From the NCBI GenBank assembly GCA_024679065.1, contig JAGIQG010000040.1, positions 7,502,001 through 7,566,000 of the forward strand: a stretch of DNA of 64,000 nt, read 5' to 3'. The notes under the pieces are model-generated. The model did no database searches and was not told the DNA's origin. It saw nothing but the letters and a program-made list of their open reading frames with translations. The number at the start of each line of letters is the position of its first letter. Positions within the stretch are counted from its first letter, which is position 1. This document shows, in pieces, positions 42,409-64,000 of the stretch. This DNA is from Sphyrna mokarran (lineage: Eukaryota). The position numbers were made by a program, and so were the translations under genes.

Positions 42409-42575
42409 CTTAATCAAAGTTGCAAATGTGCTGTAAACCATACTGAGAACAAAGAGGAGGGTGAAAACAGCCCCTAATGATGCAGCGTTGGGTTCCTCGT
42501 CGAAATTTTCTAATCCTTCTTCGGTTTTGATTTCGATTTCGTCGTCTTCTGGGTCTTCCTTTATCCCAGACTTAT
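42409..42575 (-). CDS. Ig heavy-chain transmembrane exon TM1: (D)KSGIKEDPEDDEIEIKTEEGLENFDEEPNAASLGAVFTLLFVLSMVYSTFATLIK
   Basis: Acceptor TTTCTAG|, donor AAG|GTAGT, 167 nt, phase 1-0, in frame with the internal donor at 54320. Acidic spacer followed by the antigen-receptor TM pattern F-x-x-L-F-x-L-S-x-x-Y-S-x-x-x-T-L-x-K. Not in the ORF track. Confidence 0.88.
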
Positions 42576-52849: not shown

Positions 52850-53340
52850 GTGAGGGACCTGGGTTCAATTATGGTCTCGGAATTTGCGCGTCCTTCATGT
52901 GTCTGCGCGGGTTTCTTTCGGATGAACATAGAACATAGAACATTACAGCACAGAACAGGCCCTTCGGCCTTCGATGTTGCGCCGACCAATATAAAAAGCA
53001 ATGCCCCTCCAAACTAAACCATTCCCTTCTCTTCCATATGCTTATCAACTAATCTCTTAAACGCCACCAAACTTGGCGCATCTACAACTGCCGCAGGCAG
53101 GGCATTCCACTCCCGAACCACCCTTTGGGTAAAGGAAACCAGATGCTCTGGTTTCCTCCCACAGTCCAAAGAGGCATGGGTTAGGTTGATTGGCCAGACT
53201 AAATTATCTCTTCGTGTCAGGGCTGAGGAGCGGGGAATTAACAAAGGAGAGACATGAGTTTAAGGGGTTCGGACCTAGGTGGAATTGTTTTAATTGCAGG
53301 GTCAGTGGCCGAATTATCACGTTCTGCACTGCAGTGATTC
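52850..53340 (+). mobile_element. SINE with nested young CR1 3' fragment on - (52925..53133)
   Basis: SINE core split at GGATG / GATGCTCTGG by the CR1 tail. Confidence 0.8.
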
Positions 53341-53940
53341 GGTGTCTTGATGCATCTAGACTTGCAAGATATTTCCTGCAGCACTTCAGAATGGTGAAGA
53401 ATTAATTTATACTTCAGAACTGGAAAAAGGCAGTCATTGTGACGGATTAGAAGGTCAACTAGGATTCAGCATTTACAAATCCTTTGATACAGTCCAGTGA
53501 GAAAGATGGTGTGGGGGGAGGGGGTGGCTGATCATTGCGCGACTCCAGGGAAATTACTCTGGAATGAGATGGGTTGCATCAGAAGAATATGCTTTGGCCA
53601 CAACTGAGTAAGTAAGAATGGAAGAGACAATCAGTGGTTTTAGAGAACGATTGCAGGCATAAATTATGACCCGACGTTCTATTTCCACCATTGCACATTC
53701 TGTCCACCAGTTAGAAAATTCTTGGATCAAGTGCTAATCGCAGGAGCAGGCAAACATGTTAAGGATTCGACTGATCAGGTTCTCAACGACCCCGGTTGTC
53801 TCAATATGTAGGCATAGAAACGGGTTGCACTGCTGAAATATCAGGCAGTAGGTATCACAGGTTCCAACTGCTAATTCATTACTGTAGATGTTACATGCTA
53901 AGAAACCATGAAGCGGAAGTCAGAAGGTTTTCATTCTGCA

Positions 53941-53946
53941 TTTATT
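53941..53946 (-). terminator. Poly(A) signal of the secretory Ig transcript
   Basis: AATAAA on - about 310 nt after the secretory stop codon. Confidence 0.7.
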
Positions 53947-54257
53947 GCAGTTAGCAGAGCCACATGCAAACTAAATCACAATTGCCTGCGAATTCAAAAA
54001 CGTCACCAAACCCTCCAATCAACTTTGAGTGTGATTACGTATTTCTAAGTGCATTTTTTTGTTGGATTCTAATCGGAACTATTCTGATTTTACAGCCATA
54101 CTTTCAGATACGATGAAGCTACATGATGTGCCGCTCATGTTGGGGTGACAATGATACGTTAAAATGCGATATTCAGTGACGTTGTTGCTTAAATATTTAT
54201 GGTCACAGCAACACTAAGACATCTGTAGGAAAACAAATAACAGGCAAAACAGACATG

Positions 54258-54640
54258 CTACGGACAGGATTGAAAGCTGTCAGTTAGAACAAGTGAAACG
54301 TTAACCAATGTAGGTTTACCGTAGGATTTATTTATACTTCTGATTAAATTCGTTTTGCGGGACGGATGTCCCACTAAACAGGAGTAGCTGTTGCCACTAT
54401 TCCAATCCTCCGCGGTGACTTTCAACGTGCTGGTAATAGAAAAGGATCCATTCCCCGTCTCACTCTCCGGTTGGCTCGGGTAACCCGAATCCAACAACGT
54501 GTCATTGACCATCCAACCGACGTAAATATCAGCGGGATAAAAACCTGTAGCCAGACACACCAGGGTAGCTGTCTTCTCATTGCTAACCTCTTCCACTGAT
54601 GGAGGCAGAAGGTAGACTCTAGGAGGATGCATTTCACCAA
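54258..54640 (-). CDS. Last Ig constant exon (IgNAR C5 / IgW CH6 homolog) plus secretory tailpiece GKPTLVNVSLVLTDSFQSCP*
   Basis: Acceptor TTTACAG at 54641; open to TAG at 54258. Internal membrane-form donor TAC G|GTAAA at 54320/54319. Tailpiece has an N-V-S sequon and penultimate Cys. The tail looks more IgW-like than IgNAR-like from memory. Confidence 0.93.
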
Positions 54641-55024
54641 CTGTAAAGAGGATAATATTTGTTAAAGTATTTATATTCTCCAGTCTTCACAACATATTTC
54701 TGACTGTTATAAGTAGCATTTATGTAGAACGGCATTGGTGTCTCCTATCTGAGAAAGATTAGATAATATTTTACTTGGCTAATTGTCAATTTAATGTTCC
54801 AGGCTTTTGTCGAGGTCCCATTTTGATAAAATGATATGCAGAAAATAATATTCTTAAAAATGCAGCGGGGCTGAAGGAATAAACCATTTCCGTAGTATTC
54901 ATATGGGTCATGCCAGACTTCATATTTGTGGATGTTATGGTACAAGTATGTGATATAGAAACGAGGTCATTTGTGTAAGCTTTATCACCAGATCAGTGTC
55001 TGAATAAATATTATCATTGCTTAC

Positions 55025-55345
55025 TGTTTAGTTTCCTGATGTACTTTTTCTCTGCTGTTGGTAATTCTCTGCTTTCTACGATGCAGGCATATTCCACCCC
55101 ACTGTCCCACTCTGCTGCGGTGACTTCCAGTTTGCTCACGATACGAGATTCATTGTTAGTCAATTCCGGATCCTCAGTCTCCACTCCTTCCGTTCTCTCA
55201 TTCCCATTCGCTTGCCAGGACACTCTGACATTTTCTGAATCGCTGTAAGTTATCTCACAGACAATGGTCGCTGTCTGCTGTGTCCAAATCTCTTCAAAGG
55301 AAGGTTTTAGTATTTTGACGGAAATTTTACTCTCAGGGCAATGGC
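55025..55345 (-). CDS. Ig heavy-chain constant exon, IgW/IgNAR family (homologous to IgNAR C4 / IgW CH5)
   Basis: Acceptor TTTTCAG|G, donor A|GTAAG, 321 nt, phase 1-1. GHCPESKISVKILKPSFEEIWTQQTATIVCEITYSDSENVRVSW...EWDSGVEYACIVES; carries an extra N-terminal Cys as in IgNAR C4. Confidence 0.92.
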
Positions 55346-56223
55346 CTGAAAAGAATAAGGAATGCTTATTTCAATTTGTCATTGCAAAATCAAGGATATG
55401 TCGAAAATAAAGCACCTATTTGAATGGTTTAGGGAATAGTTGCAATTGCAAAATGTTCATCTTTTGGTAGTGGAATCGAGTCTTCGGAGCAAAAGTAAAT
55501 GTGTTAATGTAATTGCTGAATCAATAAAATTAATTACTTGCTAAAATGAAACAAAGATCGGGCGACAGCACTGCGATACCTAGCTGTTCTCAATAGCAGA
55601 AATGTTCTATGCAGAAACGGGTTTAAATTTAACAATGAAACTTTCGCCTAAGTACTCTAACATAAGGACAATGATTCATTCCTTATATTTCTTGGGACAT
55701 TTAATGAGACTTTAAAAATACTTACGTGTGTTGTTACTCCTGGGAAGACTTCCCCGAGGAAAATTACCCTCACTAGTCATTTTCAGCGAATCAGCAGATA
55801 ACGTTCGCATCGCTGTGAGGGCAGTAGGGCCCGGCCCATTCCGGCTGTCACACCTCAGCCTTTCTTTCCCAAATCAGTAAGGGTAACAAAAATATTGCAG
55901 CAGATAATGTGAACAACTCTGTCTCTGGTTGCTGTATGCAATTGTTTGATTACAATCGCCAGGTAACGGTGCCGTGAAGGGAGACAAATAATTTTCGTTC
56001 CTACGTTATGCCATTGGGTTCTGACTAAGTTGAAGCAACACGTACGCTGAGAATTAATCATTTTGAATTCAGCTAACTTCTGCCGAGTTAAGAATATATA
56101 AACTGACTTTCATACGTATTGTATTACTGAAACCTAGAGGGATTTAATGATTGCTTGATGATGCATGCAGATTTAAACATCAAGCGCTGACTTTGTGTAT
56201 GTATTCTGAGAAACTATCCTTAC

Positions 56224-56541
56224 CTTTTGAGTAGCTGATAGTTCTCGTTTGATTGGATTCTGAAGGTGGATGGAAGGCAGTACAGGTATATTTTGCTCCA
56301 CTCTCCCATTCCACTTCAGGTACAATGAGTTCGCTACTTGTGCTAAAAGTCCCGTCTTGTTCCCGAGCCGATTGGGAGGTGACGATATTTGAGGTCAAAT
56401 CAATGCCGTTCTTCTTCCAAGAAATGGTTAAATCGTCCGGGTAGTATCCTTTTATCAAACATATGAGAATAGCATCTCTGGAATTTTCTACCTCGTCTGG
56501 TGATGGAGGCAGGAGGCCCAGAGCGAGTTCCATCGGCTTGC
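56224..56541 (-). CDS. Ig heavy-chain constant exon, IgW/IgNAR family (homologous to IgNAR C3 / IgW CH4)
   Basis: Acceptor TACAG|G, donor AAG|GTAAG, 318 nt, phase 1-1. GKPMELALGLLPPSPDEV...LICLIKGYYPDDLTISW...GAKYTCTAFHPPS: C1-set Cys-Trp-Cys intact. Confidence 0.92.
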
Positions 56542-56604
56542 CTGTAATAGAAGACCAAATGAGTTAGCCTTCCCACCATAGAAAACAAAATGATATATGT
56601 TTAC

Positions 56605-57401
56605 CAGCTTTTATCTTTCCTGTCCTTTTTGATACCGGAGACGATGATTGACCCTGCTGAACAGAACAGAACTCAATCCTGTCTTCCCACATTTCCATGC
56701 TGCTTGCTAATCGGTTGATAGAGTCGTAGAGTTTTACATCACAGAAGCAGGCCCTTCGGCCCAACGTGTCCATATTCGCACTTGGTCCATATCCTGGATA
56801 GCCATCTTACTCATGTTAAATATCTAAACTGTTTCTAAAAGGCAAAATTGTACCTGCCTCTACTACTACTTCTGGCAGCTTGTTCCAGACATTCACCACC
56901 CTCTGTGTGTAAAATTGCCCCTTTGGACACTTCTGTATCTCTCCCCTGTGAGCAGAAATCTATGCCCTCTAGCTTTAGACTCTGCTACCTTTGGGAAAAG
57001 ATGTTAATTATCTGGCTGATCTATGTCACTTATTATTTCACAGACCTCTGTAATAAGATCACCCCTAAGTCTTTTCGTCTCCAGAGGAAAAAAGTTCCTG
57101 TCTATCCAGCTTCTCTTTATAACTTAAACCATCAAATCCTGGTAGCATCCTGGCAAATCTCTTCTACACTCTTTCTAGTTCAATAACTTCCTATAATAAG
57201 GTGACAAGAACTGATGGTCAGATATTGATTTCCATCCTGTCTAGTGCTGTTGGTTCGAACTGCTTCAGTCCTTTTCTTTCCAACCACTTTCTAAGTGATT
57301 ACAACCTCAGTAAAAAGTACAGAAACTACTTCATACACAGGTGGCAATTTTATTGATTCGCGCTTCATCAACCGAAGGATCTATTAGAAACACAGCGAGC
57401 T
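56605..57401 (-). pseudogene. Disabled Ig constant exon (IgNAR C2 / IgW CH3 homolog) split by a CR1 insertion
   Basis: 5' half 57401..57212: ELAVFLIDPSVDEARINKIAT/(frameshift)/EVVSVLFTEVVIT*KVVGKKRTEAVRTNSTRQDGNQYLTI. 3' half 56719..56605: INRLASSMEMWEDRIEFCSVQQGQSSSPVSKRTGKIKA. TAG at 57291..57293 replaces the core Trp; acceptor (GACAG) and donor (GTAAAC) are still visible. Confidence 0.88.
56720..57211 (-). mobile_element. 5'-truncated CR1 inserted into the dead Ig exon
   Basis: CR1 ORF2 C-terminus and 3' UTR; TGAT at 56716..56719 and 57212..57215 is a candidate 4-bp target-site duplication. Confidence 0.88.
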
Positions 57402-57609
57402 CTGTCAGTGAGAAACCATAGAGCCAGAACCGTGGCAATGCTTTCACAATGACCAAACTGAACGTTTAGAAAGAATTTTAATACAAGTGATAGGATATTG
57501 AGGTGACATTGTGTTACTCGACGGTAATCACAAAAATCTTCCATTTTTCTTCAAGGTGCGTTTAGTTGCATCACAAAATTTTATAAATATTTCAACTTCA
57601 CAAAGAAAA

Positions 57610-57895
57610 GAAAGACGTTTATTCATTCATTATTAAACACTCCAATGAAGTGACATGAAAATCCCTTAGTCGACACACTCCGCCGCTTGTTCAGACATAC
57701 TGAGAGAGAAATTAGAATAGCCCATGCTCTAACCAGTATATCTTTCGGACAGTTGGACGAAACTGGAGAATCTGAAGAAACCTACGCAGATGAGTGAGAA
57801 AACATGCAGACTCGGCACAGACAAATACCCAAGCCCCCGGAATTGAACTGGGTCCTTGACATTGTGGGGCAGCAGTGCTAACTGTTGTGCTGCCG
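57610..57895 (-). mobile_element. tRNA-derived SINE
   Basis: GGCAGCACAACAGTTAGCACTGCTGCC head on -. Confidence 0.7.
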
Positions 57896-58282
57896 ATGAG
57901 GGAAAGGAAGAGAACGAACAAAAGAGAGAAAGAAATAAAGACGGGAATGGCTGTTACACCGAGAGTGTAAGCCAGAAAGAGATGCTAATGGCGATGGGCA
58001 GGCAAAGAAAGAAAGATTCGGGGGGTTGGGGTGGGGGGGATGCAGAAGGAGGTGGATACAGATCGAAATAGTGAAAAAACGGCATTGCTGAAAAAGAAAC
58101 ATAGTGTTGGCAAATTTCATCAGTTCTATCACAAGGATACCAATTAACGGACAAAACAACAAATATATGAGAAGAGCCTGCTGATTGTTTGGCACCTGGA
58201 CTTCAATCGTCGGAAGTGCTCCAATGAGAATTCAGCAGGTGATGCTGATTAAATGCCAAGCATTGTTTCAAACTTGAATCAA

Positions 58283-58350
58283 GTAGATAGATAGATAGAT
58301 AGACAAACAGACAGACAGAAAAAGACAGAGACAGAGTCAGAGACAGAGAC
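58283..58350. repeat. (GATA)n(GACA)n microsatellite
   Basis: Directly visible. Confidence 0.85.
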
Positions 58351-58359
58351 ATAGGGAGG

Positions 58360-58954
58360 TAGAACATAGAACATTACAGCACAGAACAGGCCCTTCGGCC
58401 TTCGATGTTGCGCCGACCAATATAAAAAGCAATGACCCTCCAAACTAAACCATTCCCTTCTCTTCCATATACTTATCAACTAACCTCTTAAACGCCACCA
58501 AACTTGGCGCATCTACAACTGCTGCAGGCAGGGCATTCCACTCCCGAACCACCCTTTGGGTAAAGAACCTACCTCTGATATCCGTCCTATAACTATCACC
58601 CCTTAATTTAAAGCTGTGTCCCCTCGTGCTAGCTTTCTCCATCCTAGGAAAAAGGCTATCACTGTCCACCCTATCTAAACCTCTAATCATCTTATATGTT
58701 TCGATAAGGTCTCCTCTTAGCCGCCTCCTTTCTAACGAAAACAACCTCAAATCCCTCAGCCTCTCTTCATAAGACCTGCCCTCCATACCAGGCAACATCC
58801 TGGTAAACCTCCTCTGTACCCTCTCCAATGCCTCCACATCTTTCTTATAATGTGGGGACCAGAACTGCACACAATACTCCAAATGCAGCCGCACTAGAGT
58901 TTTGTACAGTTGCAACATGACGTTGCGGCTCCGAAATCAATCCCCCTACCAATA
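58360..58954 (-). mobile_element. Young 5'-truncated CR1
   Basis: ORF 58445..58918. Confidence 0.95.
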
Positions 58955-60057
58955 GAGGGAGAGAGATGGAGACATTTAGAATCAGAGAAAAAGTGATGCA
59001 GAAGGAAAGGGAAGAATGTAACGAGAAGAATGATATAGGTCACAAGGACAAAGGGAGAGCATGACAGATGGGAAGAGAAAGGCGACCAACAAGAGGAAAA
59101 ACAAAGGGAGAAGGGCAGAGAGACAAAAAACAGATGCAACGAGGGCAAGATATGGTCCTTCGTTTTCACAACAGAGTGCGAAATGAGGAGTTAAAGCGAT
59201 GACAAAAAAGAGATAGAGAGGGATAGTAATGTACAGCCTGAGAGTGATAGACAAACATCAACATAGACAGAGCGGGTGATAAAGAATTTTTGAGGCAGAA
59301 TCAATGATTTCAATAGCAGAGAGTGTGATTGGATCATCATGCCTAATGGGTCTTTTAATGACCCAACCAAATAGAAATGTTTCCCTTCCCATCTGCTAAC
59401 TGGCCACAGTTGACAATTCTCCCCGGCCCTGTACCGTCTTTCTGAAGCGACCTATAGCGCCAAAACAAAAAAAAAACTTTAGATCCAATGATCATTTCCC
59501 TCTACTTATTCTCCTACTGACACGAATTCCACTTGTCCATTTCCTTTATCAAGTAGATCCAGCTGTGCTTAATCACTTGATGGACTGGAAACTTGCTGCA
59601 CAACTGGGTATTGTACAATCATGGCCATAAAAAGTTTCATCGGCTGAAAAGCAAATAACGAAACTGTTGTTTCATGTTTATTCGAAAAAAGCTCAACAAG
59701 AGTAAAGGCCAGTTCGTGTCAATGCAATAACTGGATAGCTGTAACAATATTTACTAAAATTCCGTGCCATCACATAATAACGTGCTTGGTACAATTTGCT
59801 CGTGACTTAAATAAGCATGCAAATATAATAATCGTTCCAAAGGGCCTTGGAATGCGTTATAAGTCAGAGCGACTGATGGCTGTAAATGCGCTAAAAGGCA
59901 AAATCATCTAAACATTTTACGTATATATGGAACGGAATGTCGGCAGGGTTGAGTTGGATTTGTGAAGGGAATGAGAGGGTAACTCAAGGATTATCAAAAT
60001 CAAAGAAAACAAGTAATATGTGTCCAGCTGTAATTAAATATGTATATATTTTGTGGA

Positions 60058-60360
60058 TGGCATGGTGGCACAGTGGTTAGGACTGCTACCTTATAGAATC
60101 AGGGTTCCATTCCGGCATCTGTCTGTATGCAGTTTGCAAGTTCTCAATGTGTCTGCGTGGTCTTCCTCCGGGTGCTCCGGTTTCCTCCCACTGTCTAAAA
60201 ATGTGCGGGTTAGTTGATTGGCCATGCTAAATTGACCCTGGTGTCAGGGGGATTAGCAGACTAAACATGTGGGGTTGTGAGAAAAGGTATTGTATCGATT
60301 TGCTATTGTTGCAGATTTGAAGGGCCGAATGGCCTCCTCATGCACTGTAGGGATTTTATG
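60058..60360 (+). mobile_element. HE1/V-SINE-like SINE
   Basis: GGCATGGTGGCACAGTGGTTAG head, core, and GGGCCGAATGGCCTCC tail. Confidence 0.82.
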
Positions 60361-60662
60361 AAATTGTGGATGCTGAAAAAAAATCAACTCTTTGTGACAA
60401 TTAAAGGGACGGTCATGAAATAACTACCGAGAAACAAGCACATGTATTAGCAGGCAGATAGGTAATGGATTCACAATTCTTGGTTAACATTATTCTGTGA
60501 ATATTCCTCACTGATATATCAATGACTTTGTTTTACTCATTGTTTCCTGCATGAGGATGCAAAGAATTCGATTTACTGCAGAAATCATCTTTGGCCATTT
60601 CAGGGTATAACAGTAAATGCTAGTCAATCAAGTAGAGCATAAAGGGACTAATACCTATTTAC

Positions 60663-60718
60663 CTGAACAGATTAAAGCAATGAACACTAAAAACAGGAGA
60701 GTCGTACCATTTTAGCAT
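60663..60718 (-). other. Leader (signal-peptide)-like exon with one extra base
   Basis: ATG CTA AA[A]T GGT ACG ACT CTC CTG TTT TTA GTG TTC ATT GCT TTA ATC TGT TCA G|GTAAAT. Removing one A from the A4 run gives MLNGTTLLFLVFIALICS + phase-1 donor. Confidence 0.4.
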
Positions 60719-62201
60719 TGTGCAAAGTGAAGAACATGAGTTGATTTGGGAGAATTTCCAATGATTGCACAATGACCATGGGGGAATTGGATTGGAACCA
60801 ATAGAGTTCTTTTGCTGCAGGAGTTCCTGGATCGATAAAACAAGTTTCATTTCAATAACTGACTCTTCTATCTTTGTGACGAAACATTGACTGTCCACAA
60901 TATTTCCACGCTTTAACATTCCCCTTAAAATAGGGAGTTCCTCTCGCGTTACTAAGGAGTTCCACGGAAGAAAATATTTTAAATTTCATGTCATCAACCA
61001 TTCTGGTGAGAGGGACTATCATCTGGTAAGCTTTGGCGTGTGTTGTCTACAACTGATAACACGCAGTACAGTTTGAGTATATTTGATGGGGGGTGGTCTT
61101 AATCGGACACGATTTAGAGATTTTACCTTACTTTATAGTTTGTGATTAGTGGTCTGTGCTGGCTGTGAACCTAGTACAAAACAAAAGCAATCTCACTGCA
61201 ACAATTTAGCCTTCCTCAACAAAAATTGAAACCTGCACTGAATCAAGGTGACATGTTGCCGTGAGGCAGCCATGGCGTTACCAAGCAGGTGGCTTGAATT
61301 GTGCGAACAGAGTAACGTAACTTGAAGAATGAAATTAGTTTTATAGAGCCAAAATAATGTTGGATTCCATGAAGATATACCACGAAACTAAGATACATGT
61401 GATCGTCAATAGGGATGCTTATTATGATGTGGCATTTACAGTAATTTGTGCAAAAAGCACACTTCGTCCAAAAACAAATTTGGCATTTCAGGGCCAGTGA
61501 AGATGTTGAGCAGTTAGTATTTTGTCATTATGCCTCAAAAGCATACAGTTCACGTCCTTCATCAAGAAAAGAAATCATGATATTTCGATGCCACAATTAC
61601 TGTGTATTTATTTTTCAATTCACATTGCTGCTTAGAGTAATATGTACAGAGCACTCTACGGACTATCTGACAGCATTTTATATATTTTCATATTCCTCTG
61701 TACAAGTTCAAATATCTATCCTTGAAGTGAATGCTGATACTTGCGCCGTCACTAACAGGCAAAATCCTCCTTATTTTGTAACAGTCCAAGTCGCTTATTC
61801 CCAACTCCTAAAATTTTCCACAAACCAACAGCACTAACCATTAACCTGCCCAAAACAAGCGATAACATGACAACTGGATAGCAACCAAGAAATGATTCTT
61901 CCACTTTGCTACAGTTTCCTCCTCTTTTTGCTGTCAGTTAATGTGATCTAAAATCAGGAGCTAAGATACTAAGCAAACTATTTATTCCAGCAAATTAAGC
62001 AAATGTGCAGTAACAAGTATACTCAATGCGTCAAAGATTTAATTATTCACCCCGAAGCAATAAACAAAGAGCCGTCTGCTGACTTCATTCCCACTTTAAA
62101 TGGAACTCCACTGTTGGCCCTGAAATCACTAGTTTCGAATTCCGCTGCTGCTCCATACACGATTGCACACAAATTGCTGATCAACAATACTCCAACAGAC
62201 C

Positions 62202-62720
62202 CCAGTTCTGGTCGCCTCATTATAGGAAGGATGGAGAAGCTATTGAGAGAGTCCAGAGGAGATTTACAAGGATGCTGCCTGGATTGGGAGGCAGGCCTTA
62301 TGAAGATAGGTTGAGGGAGCTGGGACTCTTCTCACTGGAGCGACGCAGGTTGAGAGGCGACCTGATAGAGGTTTCTAAAATGTTGAGAGGGATAGATAGG
62401 GTGGACTCTCAGAGACTATTTCCCCGAGCTGAAATGGTCACTACGAGAGGACACAGATTTAAAGTGCAGGGAAGCAAATACAAAGGAGATGTCAGAGGTA
62501 GGTTTTTCACTCAGAGGATTGTGAGTGAATGGAACCGACTGCCGTCGGAGGTTGTTGAGGAAAACTCACTGGGGTCTTTTAAGAGACTTCTGGATGAGTA
62601 TATGGAAATGAGTAGGATAGGGGGTTATAGATAGGTCTGTAGATTGGTCGATGTGATCGGCGCAACTCGTGGGCCGAAGGGCCTGTTTTTATGCTGTATT
62701 GTTCTATGTTCTATGTTCTA
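62202..62720 (+). mobile_element. CR1 3' fragment
   Basis: ORF 62272..62634 and (TTCTATG)n tail. Confidence 0.92.
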
Positions 62721-63629
62721 ACGTATGTCTGCAAGATTTGATTCCATTTAGATAAAAAAAACAGCTGAATTGCAGTGAAATGAGCTCTGTGTGCAATGGG
62801 CCGTAAACAAATCTCTAGGCGGTTTTGCATTTCATCCAAGTGACTTTGCACTGAAGTTCACAGAATAACTGTTCAAACAATTCCTGGAAACTCGAATACT
62901 TTCCGTACAATGTTTATCGTGTTCGAAATTGAAAAATATATCAAAACAATATTACATAAGAGGTGGATAATAAAAGCTTCTCAATGTATAACAGTGTCCC
63001 TATATGTCAGCGACCTTTCACCCTACTCAAGAAGAGCAATTTAATCCCCAATCGGTCCTTCAGTAGCTCACAGTTACATGTCCATCGTTAATGTCGAAAA
63101 TCCAATGAGCAAAACATTTGAAGACAACATGTTTGCATTAATTTAACAGGCATTGTTTTAGCATTTTGAGTGGTGCTTTTCTAGCGACATGAAATTCGCC
63201 GTCAACATTTTATGTAATTAACGCTGTTTGCATGAAACTTGCCTTACCCGATCCTTGTATTAATTCCATGAATTACAATCACTCTATATCAATGACATCC
63301 GCAACACCTCAGTAATGACAACTTTGCCGATCTAGTTCCGTTCTAAAGGTATAAGCTTCACAATCTGTTCAAATGATTATCTTGAATTATCTATGTCAGT
63401 TATGTTGCATATTTGAATGCAGCGGTGTACAAAGATAAGTTACGTGTCCAAATTCATTTACATTTTCTCCCCTAAACAACACTAAACAAATATTCTAATT
63501 TAAAATATAGTAAATTGCTAGCTCATCTGAGTGACCATAACAAACTGATTCGAACATCGCTTTACGCAATTCATACCATGTCTTCGAAAAAAATAATCAT
63601 TAACAATCTTGTGCGGATAACACAATTTC

Positions 63630-63990
63630 ATTTTTTCTGTTTGTGAAGTAGCTTGGTATGGCTTCTGCTCTGTTCAAGACCGCAAGAAACTGCAAAAAGT
63701 CGTGAATGTGGCCCAATCCATCACTTAAACCAACTTCCCATCCTTTGACTCTAACCACAATTCCCGCTGCCTCCGCAAAGCAACCAGCATAATTAACAAC
63801 CGCACACACAGGAAGCATACTCTCTTCCGCCTTCTTCCGTCGGGAAAAAGAGACAGAAATCTGAAGTCATGTTCCAACCGACTCAAGAACAGTTTCTTTC
63901 CTGTTGAATGGATCTACTTTATATTCAGATGATCTTTGACTGCATCCGATCTATGGCTGTTACACTACATTCTACACTCTCTCGTTTCCT
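63630..63990 (+). mobile_element. Rex1/Babar-like LINE 3' fragment
   Basis: + frame 'AWYGFCSVQDRKKLQKVVNVAQSI...LFRLLPSGKR...RLKNSFFP'. Confidence 0.7.
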
Positions 63991-64000
63991 TGTCTATCAA

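Follow-up and report, generated by a model that had tools for sequence, protein, structure and literature searches.

How a single constant-domain exon of an immunoglobulin gene came to lie in ruins beside intact neighbours, and what the gene encodes without it, is the question raised by a 64,000-nucleotide stretch of Sphyrna mokarran DNA (contig JAGIQG010000040.1, 7502001-7566000; hereafter the window), in which an IgNAR gene occupies the minus strand. IgNAR is described as a highly diversified, late-acting shark antibody. A preliminary description of the window had noted four lesions in one constant exon, and had proposed that this exon was released from selection long ago while the rest stayed constrained, that it is constitutively skipped, and that a LINE insertion may have caused the domain loss. 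By itself the dead exon is a modest curiosity; the main point, which that first reading missed, is that the V exon is already joined and that C1 is absent.

We focused on the exons that remain open. Three intact C1-set exons are found on the minus strand (56541-56224, 55345-55025 and 54640-54258). Among single-domain PDB entries, the best match of the first is the shark IgNAR entry 4q9c (111 bits) and that of the second is the shark IgNAR entry 2mkl (139.7 bits), while the C2 domain of the paralogs described below matches 4q9b. We take 2mkl to be IgNAR C4, and all three entries presumably come from nurse shark. In the available part of the PMC12227049 supplement, 4q9c is given as C3 and 4q9b as C2. 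Moreover, the C2 relic, C3, C4 and C5 map onto Triakis IgNAR in the order of the IgNAR constant domains, and in the tree each domain is placed with its own IgNAR class, with some forks unsettled and C5 grouping with IgNAR C5 (94/87). A cysteine in the secretory tail, a transmembrane exon and the C3-C4 linker cysteine, all features of IgNAR, are present as well. The parts of the gene within the window are the following.

56605..57401, minus strand: dead IgNAR C2 exon, 797 nt including an insert; acceptor AG retained, ancestral donor lost
56720..57211, minus strand, sense orientation: decayed, 5'-truncated, CR1-like LINE of 492 bp with an ATCA target duplication
56224..56541, minus strand: intact IgNAR C3 exon, which takes the splice from J
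55025..55345, minus strand: intact IgNAR C4 exon, C3-C4 linker Cys retained
54258..54640, minus strand: IgNAR C5 exon and secretory tail, ending Cys-Pro-stop, with an internal donor at 54320 for a predicted membrane form
53941..53946, minus strand: poly(A) signal AATAAA for the secreted form; the surrounding stretch is conserved in both paralogs
42409..42575, minus strand: transmembrane exon, open, in frame with C5, AG and GT intact; membrane splice predicted

At a distance of 0.6-0.7 Mb the contig also carries two intact paralogs, conventional IgNAR clusters at 6.87-6.89 Mb and 6.96-6.98 Mb. Their domains are 78-96% identical to Triakis IgNAR (BAJ20185.1), as against 53, 62 and 68% for C3, C4 and C5 of the present gene, which sets the locus apart as an old lineage of its own. 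Homolog searches of protein collections, a weak test, turned up no ortholog, the best VNAR match in one of them being Triakis at 52%. At synonymous sites the C2 exons of the two paralogs hardly differ from each other (dS 0.014), whereas their other exons have dS values of 0.08-0.17, a hint of gene conversion. Contig C1548 carries, at 81.08-81.86 Mb, more than 25 arrayed matches to Ig constant domains, which are near-equal and about 39% identical to C3.

Lesions in the dead exon were called on the minus strand by alignment to both intact paralog C2 exons, against which the relic has a local score of 144-145, compared with a maximum of 49-52.5 over 30 shuffles. The alignment to IgW CH3 and IgNAR C2 that had been proposed as a check identifies the domain as IgNAR C2; an IgW origin was rejected by the comparison with the paralogs, 4q9b and Triakis, and by the tree. 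Six lesions were counted in all. The frameshift previously placed at 57320-57332 is real, although it consists of a 2-nt deletion placed after 57342, approximately 10-20 nt upstream, and the first Cys is in addition lost by substitution, as the codon aligned to it (57335-57333) is TAT, encoding Tyr. The TAG at 57293-57291 in place of the core Trp was confirmed in the paralog alignment, as were the 3-nt deletion after 56671, which leaves EFC where the paralogs read EYSC or EYNC, and the decayed insert of exactly 492 bp, flanked by ATCA copies (TGAT on the plus strand) at 57215-57212 and 56719-56716. Together with the Cys-to-Tyr change, the loss of the donor was not among the four lesions first noted: the paralogs read AAAG/GT at the exon end and this gene AAAG/CT, with the nearest GT 3 nt further, at 56604. 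A 3-nt "insertion" at 57236 was rejected as a lesion, the residue being found in 4q9b and in Triakis C2 too. Inclusion of the exon would stop translation at residue 149. C3, C4 and C5 are open and phase 1-1, as had been described for the neighbouring exons, and because all exons share this phase either of the constant exons C1 and C2 can be dropped in frame. The gap of 63 bp between C2 and C3 is ordinary, and the short intron ancestral, since the C2-C3 intron measures 88 bp in both paralogs.

A contig from another organism (X2 contig 11) aligns to the 3' end of the dead exon, at 56609-56648, with 36 of 40 letters identical, where this animal's own paralogs agree at 32-33 of 40. Its loose ends resemble an intact C2 end and a C3-like start, and the weak signal of these 40 nt possibly points to a related IgNAR that has retained C2.

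We then considered when C2 was lost. Nucleotide identity to the paralogs is 67-68% for the dead exon and 70-74% for the live ones. The dN/dS of dead C2 against the paralogs is 0.31-0.33 (95 codons; 95% interval 0.15-0.59), within the range of 0.22-0.66 seen for the live exons (C3 0.65-0.66, C4 0.34-0.42, C5 0.22-0.27; pooled 0.37-0.42). Its observed dN is 0.31-0.32 (0.23-0.41), while neutral evolution since the paralog split would predict 0.47-0.63. As the dN/dS of C2 matches that of the live exons and its dN lies below the neutral prediction, C2 seems to have died well after the locus and the paralogs split; thus, the alignments suggest a death in the later part of the locus history, yet early enough for six lesions to accumulate. 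The per-exon comparison that had been suggested therefore gives a mixed answer: the decay is confirmed, with six lesions, but "long ago" needs qualifying, as the ratio for C2 is like that of exons still in use. For C3, dN/dS is 0.65 with an interval of 0.39-1.07, which leaves room for relaxed selection on this domain. C3, which now adjoins V, is also the most diverged live domain (53% identical to Triakis, against 92-93% for the paralogs). Branch lengths of 0.55-0.56 and bit scores of 111 versus 142 point to an accelerated C3 or C2 in this lineage, but none of 8 relative-rate comparisons with an outgroup of IgW-like domains reached significance.

The LINE offers a second clock. The insert is a 3' fragment, one related genomic copy of which has Pfam RVT_1 upstream; its CR1 name is our assumption, drawn from ORF2 and tail motifs. 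It is 82-85% identical to 19 of its best-matching genomic copies and 86.3% identical to their majority state (JC 0.15), to which those 19 copies themselves average 93.5%; because 40 of 12,491 candidate copies were scored, JC 0.15 is best taken as an upper bound. Dating against a consensus hence bears out the decay of the insert, while the age of C2 death that it gives falls at the edge of the dN interval: neutrality since a LINE of at most about 0.15 substitutions per site predicts a C2 dN of 0.37-0.42, next to the observed 0.23-0.41. This near agreement is what speaks for the LINE having been the first hit, which broke C2 and made skipping advantageous later, an order of events that would be compatible with the main reading given below. 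We consider it rather unlikely, though well worth keeping in mind, as loss of the ancestral donor, also seen here, could by itself have led to skipping, the first stop in frame precedes the LINE, and the loss of C1 shows no trace of a comparable cause. The LINE as the cause of the domain loss is consequently not upheld, with six lesions of no resolvable order and a second domain gone besides; either donor loss or the LINE may have struck C2 first. Young LINE copies at 58954-58360, 51140-48801 and 45751-43852 are 95-98% identical to copies at the paralog loci, unlike the old insert in C2.

The gene continues beyond the window, and coordinates above 64000 count onward from the window end into the adjoining sequence L001 (64001 = L001:1).

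64619-64577 (L001:577-619), minus strand, just past the window: leader exon, phase 1
64452-64120 (L001:120-452), minus strand, just past the window: single-exon joined V(D)J VNAR, running from FR1 through CDR3 and J to a GT donor
57402..64000 plus 119 bases past the window end, minus strand: interval from J to dead C2, with LINE and SINE pieces, no C1 relic and no recombination signal

Upstream of C2, the J-C2 interval gave local scores for a C1 relic of 42-43, against shuffle means of 39-40, and tblastn of Triakis IgNAR over it returned no C1 match at E<=10. A genome search at E<=1e-14 recovered the two paralog C1 exons and no third one. A possible mini-exon near 61170 was dropped, since the contig described below splices J directly to C3.

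The V exon is a VNAR in sequence, the atlas included, and in predicted fold, and its J is homologous to that of the paralogs. Its 11 matches to PDB sequences at E<=1e-22 are all shark VNAR-type domains, its model (pLDDT 92) has VNAR entries in all of the best 50 Foldseek rows, and from FR1 to the second Cys it aligns without gaps to five VNARs, with the short FR2-CDR2 of that type. In the genome V search the best matches were two IgNAR V segments, at 54% and 48%, the other 24 lying at 33-42%. The CDR3 spans approximately 13 amino acids, and the predicted mature domain has two canonical Cys only. From the promoter to 57400 (65000-57400) no recombination signal was found, while the paralogs have 5 and 4 by the same rule. 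No significant D-derived stretch was recognized in CDR3, the best of 6 candidate segments reaching P=0.064. As the introns, including that of the leader, are retained, the joining probably took place at the DNA level, and a retrocopy is unlikely. Recombination by RAG in a germ cell is the accepted origin of germline-joined clusters in the available text of PMC4279169, and an old IgNAR cluster would have been recombined here in the same way.

Two other origins of the joined exon were weighed. The first holds that it is a somatic rearrangement or an assembly artefact, with a germline locus that rearranges normally, and X1, the sample with the relevant transcript, could indeed derive from the same animal as the assembly. 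We regard this as very improbable: a join made in a single somatic clone would not be expected to end up as the consensus of the assembly, the J differs from the paralog J at 16 of 40 nt (24 of 40 identical), and the RNA contig is apparently unbroken through the junction. The second takes the gene for a primordial non-rearranging receptor, never split by RAG, like UrIg or UrIg2; a single-exon VJ, a split leader and several C domains are shared with UrIg2 as it is described in the available part of PMC12227049. Nevertheless, V is a VNAR, C3 and C4 reach 111 and 140 bits to IgNAR where the UrIg2 domains reach 36-47 bits each for C3, the C2 relic stands in IgNAR order, and C5 goes with IgNAR C5. 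Neither V nor C domains are thus of UrIg type, and by these comparisons the proposal is already largely refuted, so that we give it hardly any credence.

In FR4 the joined exon has Phe where the paralog and Triakis J have Asp, and its FR2 has a second Trp; both are more hydrophobic than in typical VNARs, at positions that may belong to the former pairing face. A complex prediction with two V copies scored 0.02, which is evidence for neither side. In the promoter (L001:~720-735), the octamer ATGCAAAT of the paralogs is ACGCAAAT here, with one base different, and a TATA-like box is retained.

To follow the gene into transcripts, contigs from three runs of one study (X1, X2 and X3) were aligned to 53300-57700, none of the listed runs being on record as RNA. 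Contig 4 of X1, of 1161 nt, links 54640 with 55025 and 55344 with 56223 across GT-AG introns. It has 1 differing letter in 966 and extends 195 letters beyond C3. Thirty of these are identical to 64127-64156 (L001:127-156; 30/30), with no other match in the three regions examined, and the 7-nt overhang has the 1 mismatch that splicing of the J end onto 56541 would produce. Because the 30 letters match and the overhang fits, the junction is read as J (64120) to C3 (56541), in frame. If the remaining 165 letters are colinear, the contig reaches 64321 (L001:321) through CDR3, which would fit an invariant junction. The J-C3-C4-C5 path was observed in one contig of one sample from one study. Pieces of X2 and X3 on C3-C5 (0-1 differences, depth 2-6) are probably not independent of X1 and may reflect carry-over; being near-identical, they were left uncounted. 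Contig depth over the LINE stems from other LINE copies, and X1 depth is nil in two bins at 57269-57562, in the 5' part of the dead exon, missing cover being no evidence. A search for junction reads into 56541 had been recommended, and one RNA-derived contig does enter C3 there, directly from the J end of the upstream V exon. The in-frame skip of the dead exon is accordingly borne out, but "constitutive" goes further than one contig allows, since contigs drop rare isoforms.

Spliced in this way, leader, V, C3, C4, C5 and tail encode 465 amino acids with a single terminal stop, in which all domain, linker and tail cysteines are retained. In serum, IgNAR is a light-chain-free homodimer. The available text of PMC4622739 states that C1 and C3 dimerise IgNAR and that the C3-C4 linker is disulfide-bridged. 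The present chain retains both C3 and the linker Cys, through which it would dimerise, so that a compact dimer carrying V on a C3 stalk is expected; the tail Cys may allow multimers.

The same open frame bears on the alternative that the entire gene is a pseudogene, still transcribed and at an early stage of a decay that began with C1 and C2, its other exons being open only by chance or lag. Two lost domains, the C3 dN/dS interval extending to 1.07 and the variant octamer would be in keeping with this, and still we find it improbable: leader, V, C3, C4, C5, tail and transmembrane exon (approximately 1.56 kb) have neither stop nor frameshift, against six lesions in the adjoining exon and a LINE drift of about 0.15 substitutions per site. 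Moreover, every splice site in use is preserved, and a spliced contig was observed.

Altogether, the joined V with its leader intron and no recombination signal, the absence of C1, the lesions of C2, the open frame and the J-C3-C4-C5 path of one contig were observed. They are, in our judgement, quite probably those of an IgNAR gene whose V, D and J are joined in the assembly, and which would make one fixed-specificity, heavy-chain-only antibody with three constant domains. C1 would have been deleted; C2 would have remained under selection through much of the history of the lineage before it was skipped in splicing and then decayed. By analogy with IgM1gj, the product would likely be an invariant, innate-like, preformed antibody to a conserved antigen. 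With slightly more confidence than doubt, we further propose that a secreted, hard-wired "innate nanobody" exists in some sharks, as a subclass of IgNAR in which a single invariant VNAR sits directly on a C3 stalk. It would have converged on the IgM1gj design, and its origin would go back roughly to the divergence from nurse shark IgNAR. This age would be consistent with C4 of this gene equalling the paralog C4 against 2mkl (139.7 and 134.1 bits).

Searches of full-text literature returned no report of an IgNAR that is fully joined or that is devoid of both C1 and C2, though one may exist in subscription papers. The proposal that germline-joined clusters bind conserved antigens, made in the available text of PMC3149040, becomes directly testable with a transcribed IgNAR of fixed junction, as its binding site consists entirely of one small domain, which can be produced by itself. 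Moreover, one gene holds domain loss at two stages, with C1 gone and C2 a datable fossil, and VNAR library primers in C1, as described in the available text of PMC11641339, would miss this transcript.

Compared with the canonical IgNAR cluster of nurse shark, bamboo shark and Triakis (V-D1-D2-D3-J, C1-C5), the gene shares the VNAR-type V, C3-C5, linker Cys, tail, transmembrane exon and phases. It differs in its fully joined V(D)J with no recombination signals, in having no C1 and a dead C2; split V, D and J segments with signals and a secreted form of five constant domains are thus the two canonical features it lacks, the splice running from J to C3. In the genes of camelid heavy-chain antibodies, CH1 is still present as an exon, which a mutated donor site causes to be skipped. 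These antibodies too lack a constant domain in the expressed chain, although VHH rearrange, and the loss there removes a light-chain pairing already absent in IgNAR (PMC3149040, available text). Type III IgNAR and the bamboo shark clusters with pre-joined D share germline joining and restricted CDR3 diversity, but in the available parts of PMC4622739 and PMC8692893 the D segments alone are fused and rearrangement continues, and all five C exons are present in the complete clusters of bamboo shark. Short IgNAR forms, namely bamboo shark IgNAR3, from a dedicated locus and devoid of C2-C3, and nurse shark isoforms devoid of C4-C5, also have three constant domains; they retain C1, whereas C1 and C2 are lost here, and no joined V is reported for them in the available text of PMC11641339. 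NAR-TCR, in which a NAR V is followed by a supporting TCR-delta V, differs in that J splices to an Ig C3 exon in the present gene; among 23 of the 26 "NAR" entries of Table S1 in PMC12227049, a white shark NAR-TCR V is marked "gj" and a catshark IgNAR, LOC119951508, is marked pseudo. The nearest parallel is IgM1gj of nurse shark (PMC4279169, PMC5192425, available parts), for which neonatal expression was shown, with its germline-joined V, lost second constant domain and three C domains. The join and the three C domains recur here, in the assembly and one RNA contig, while the IgM VH and C-mu do not: IgM1gj is an IgM with CH1, paired with a germline-joined light chain, and the V and C domains described here are those of IgNAR. 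Overall, the gene works like IgM1gj, with a joined V and three constant domains, but is not a member of that class; it is an IgNAR by descent.
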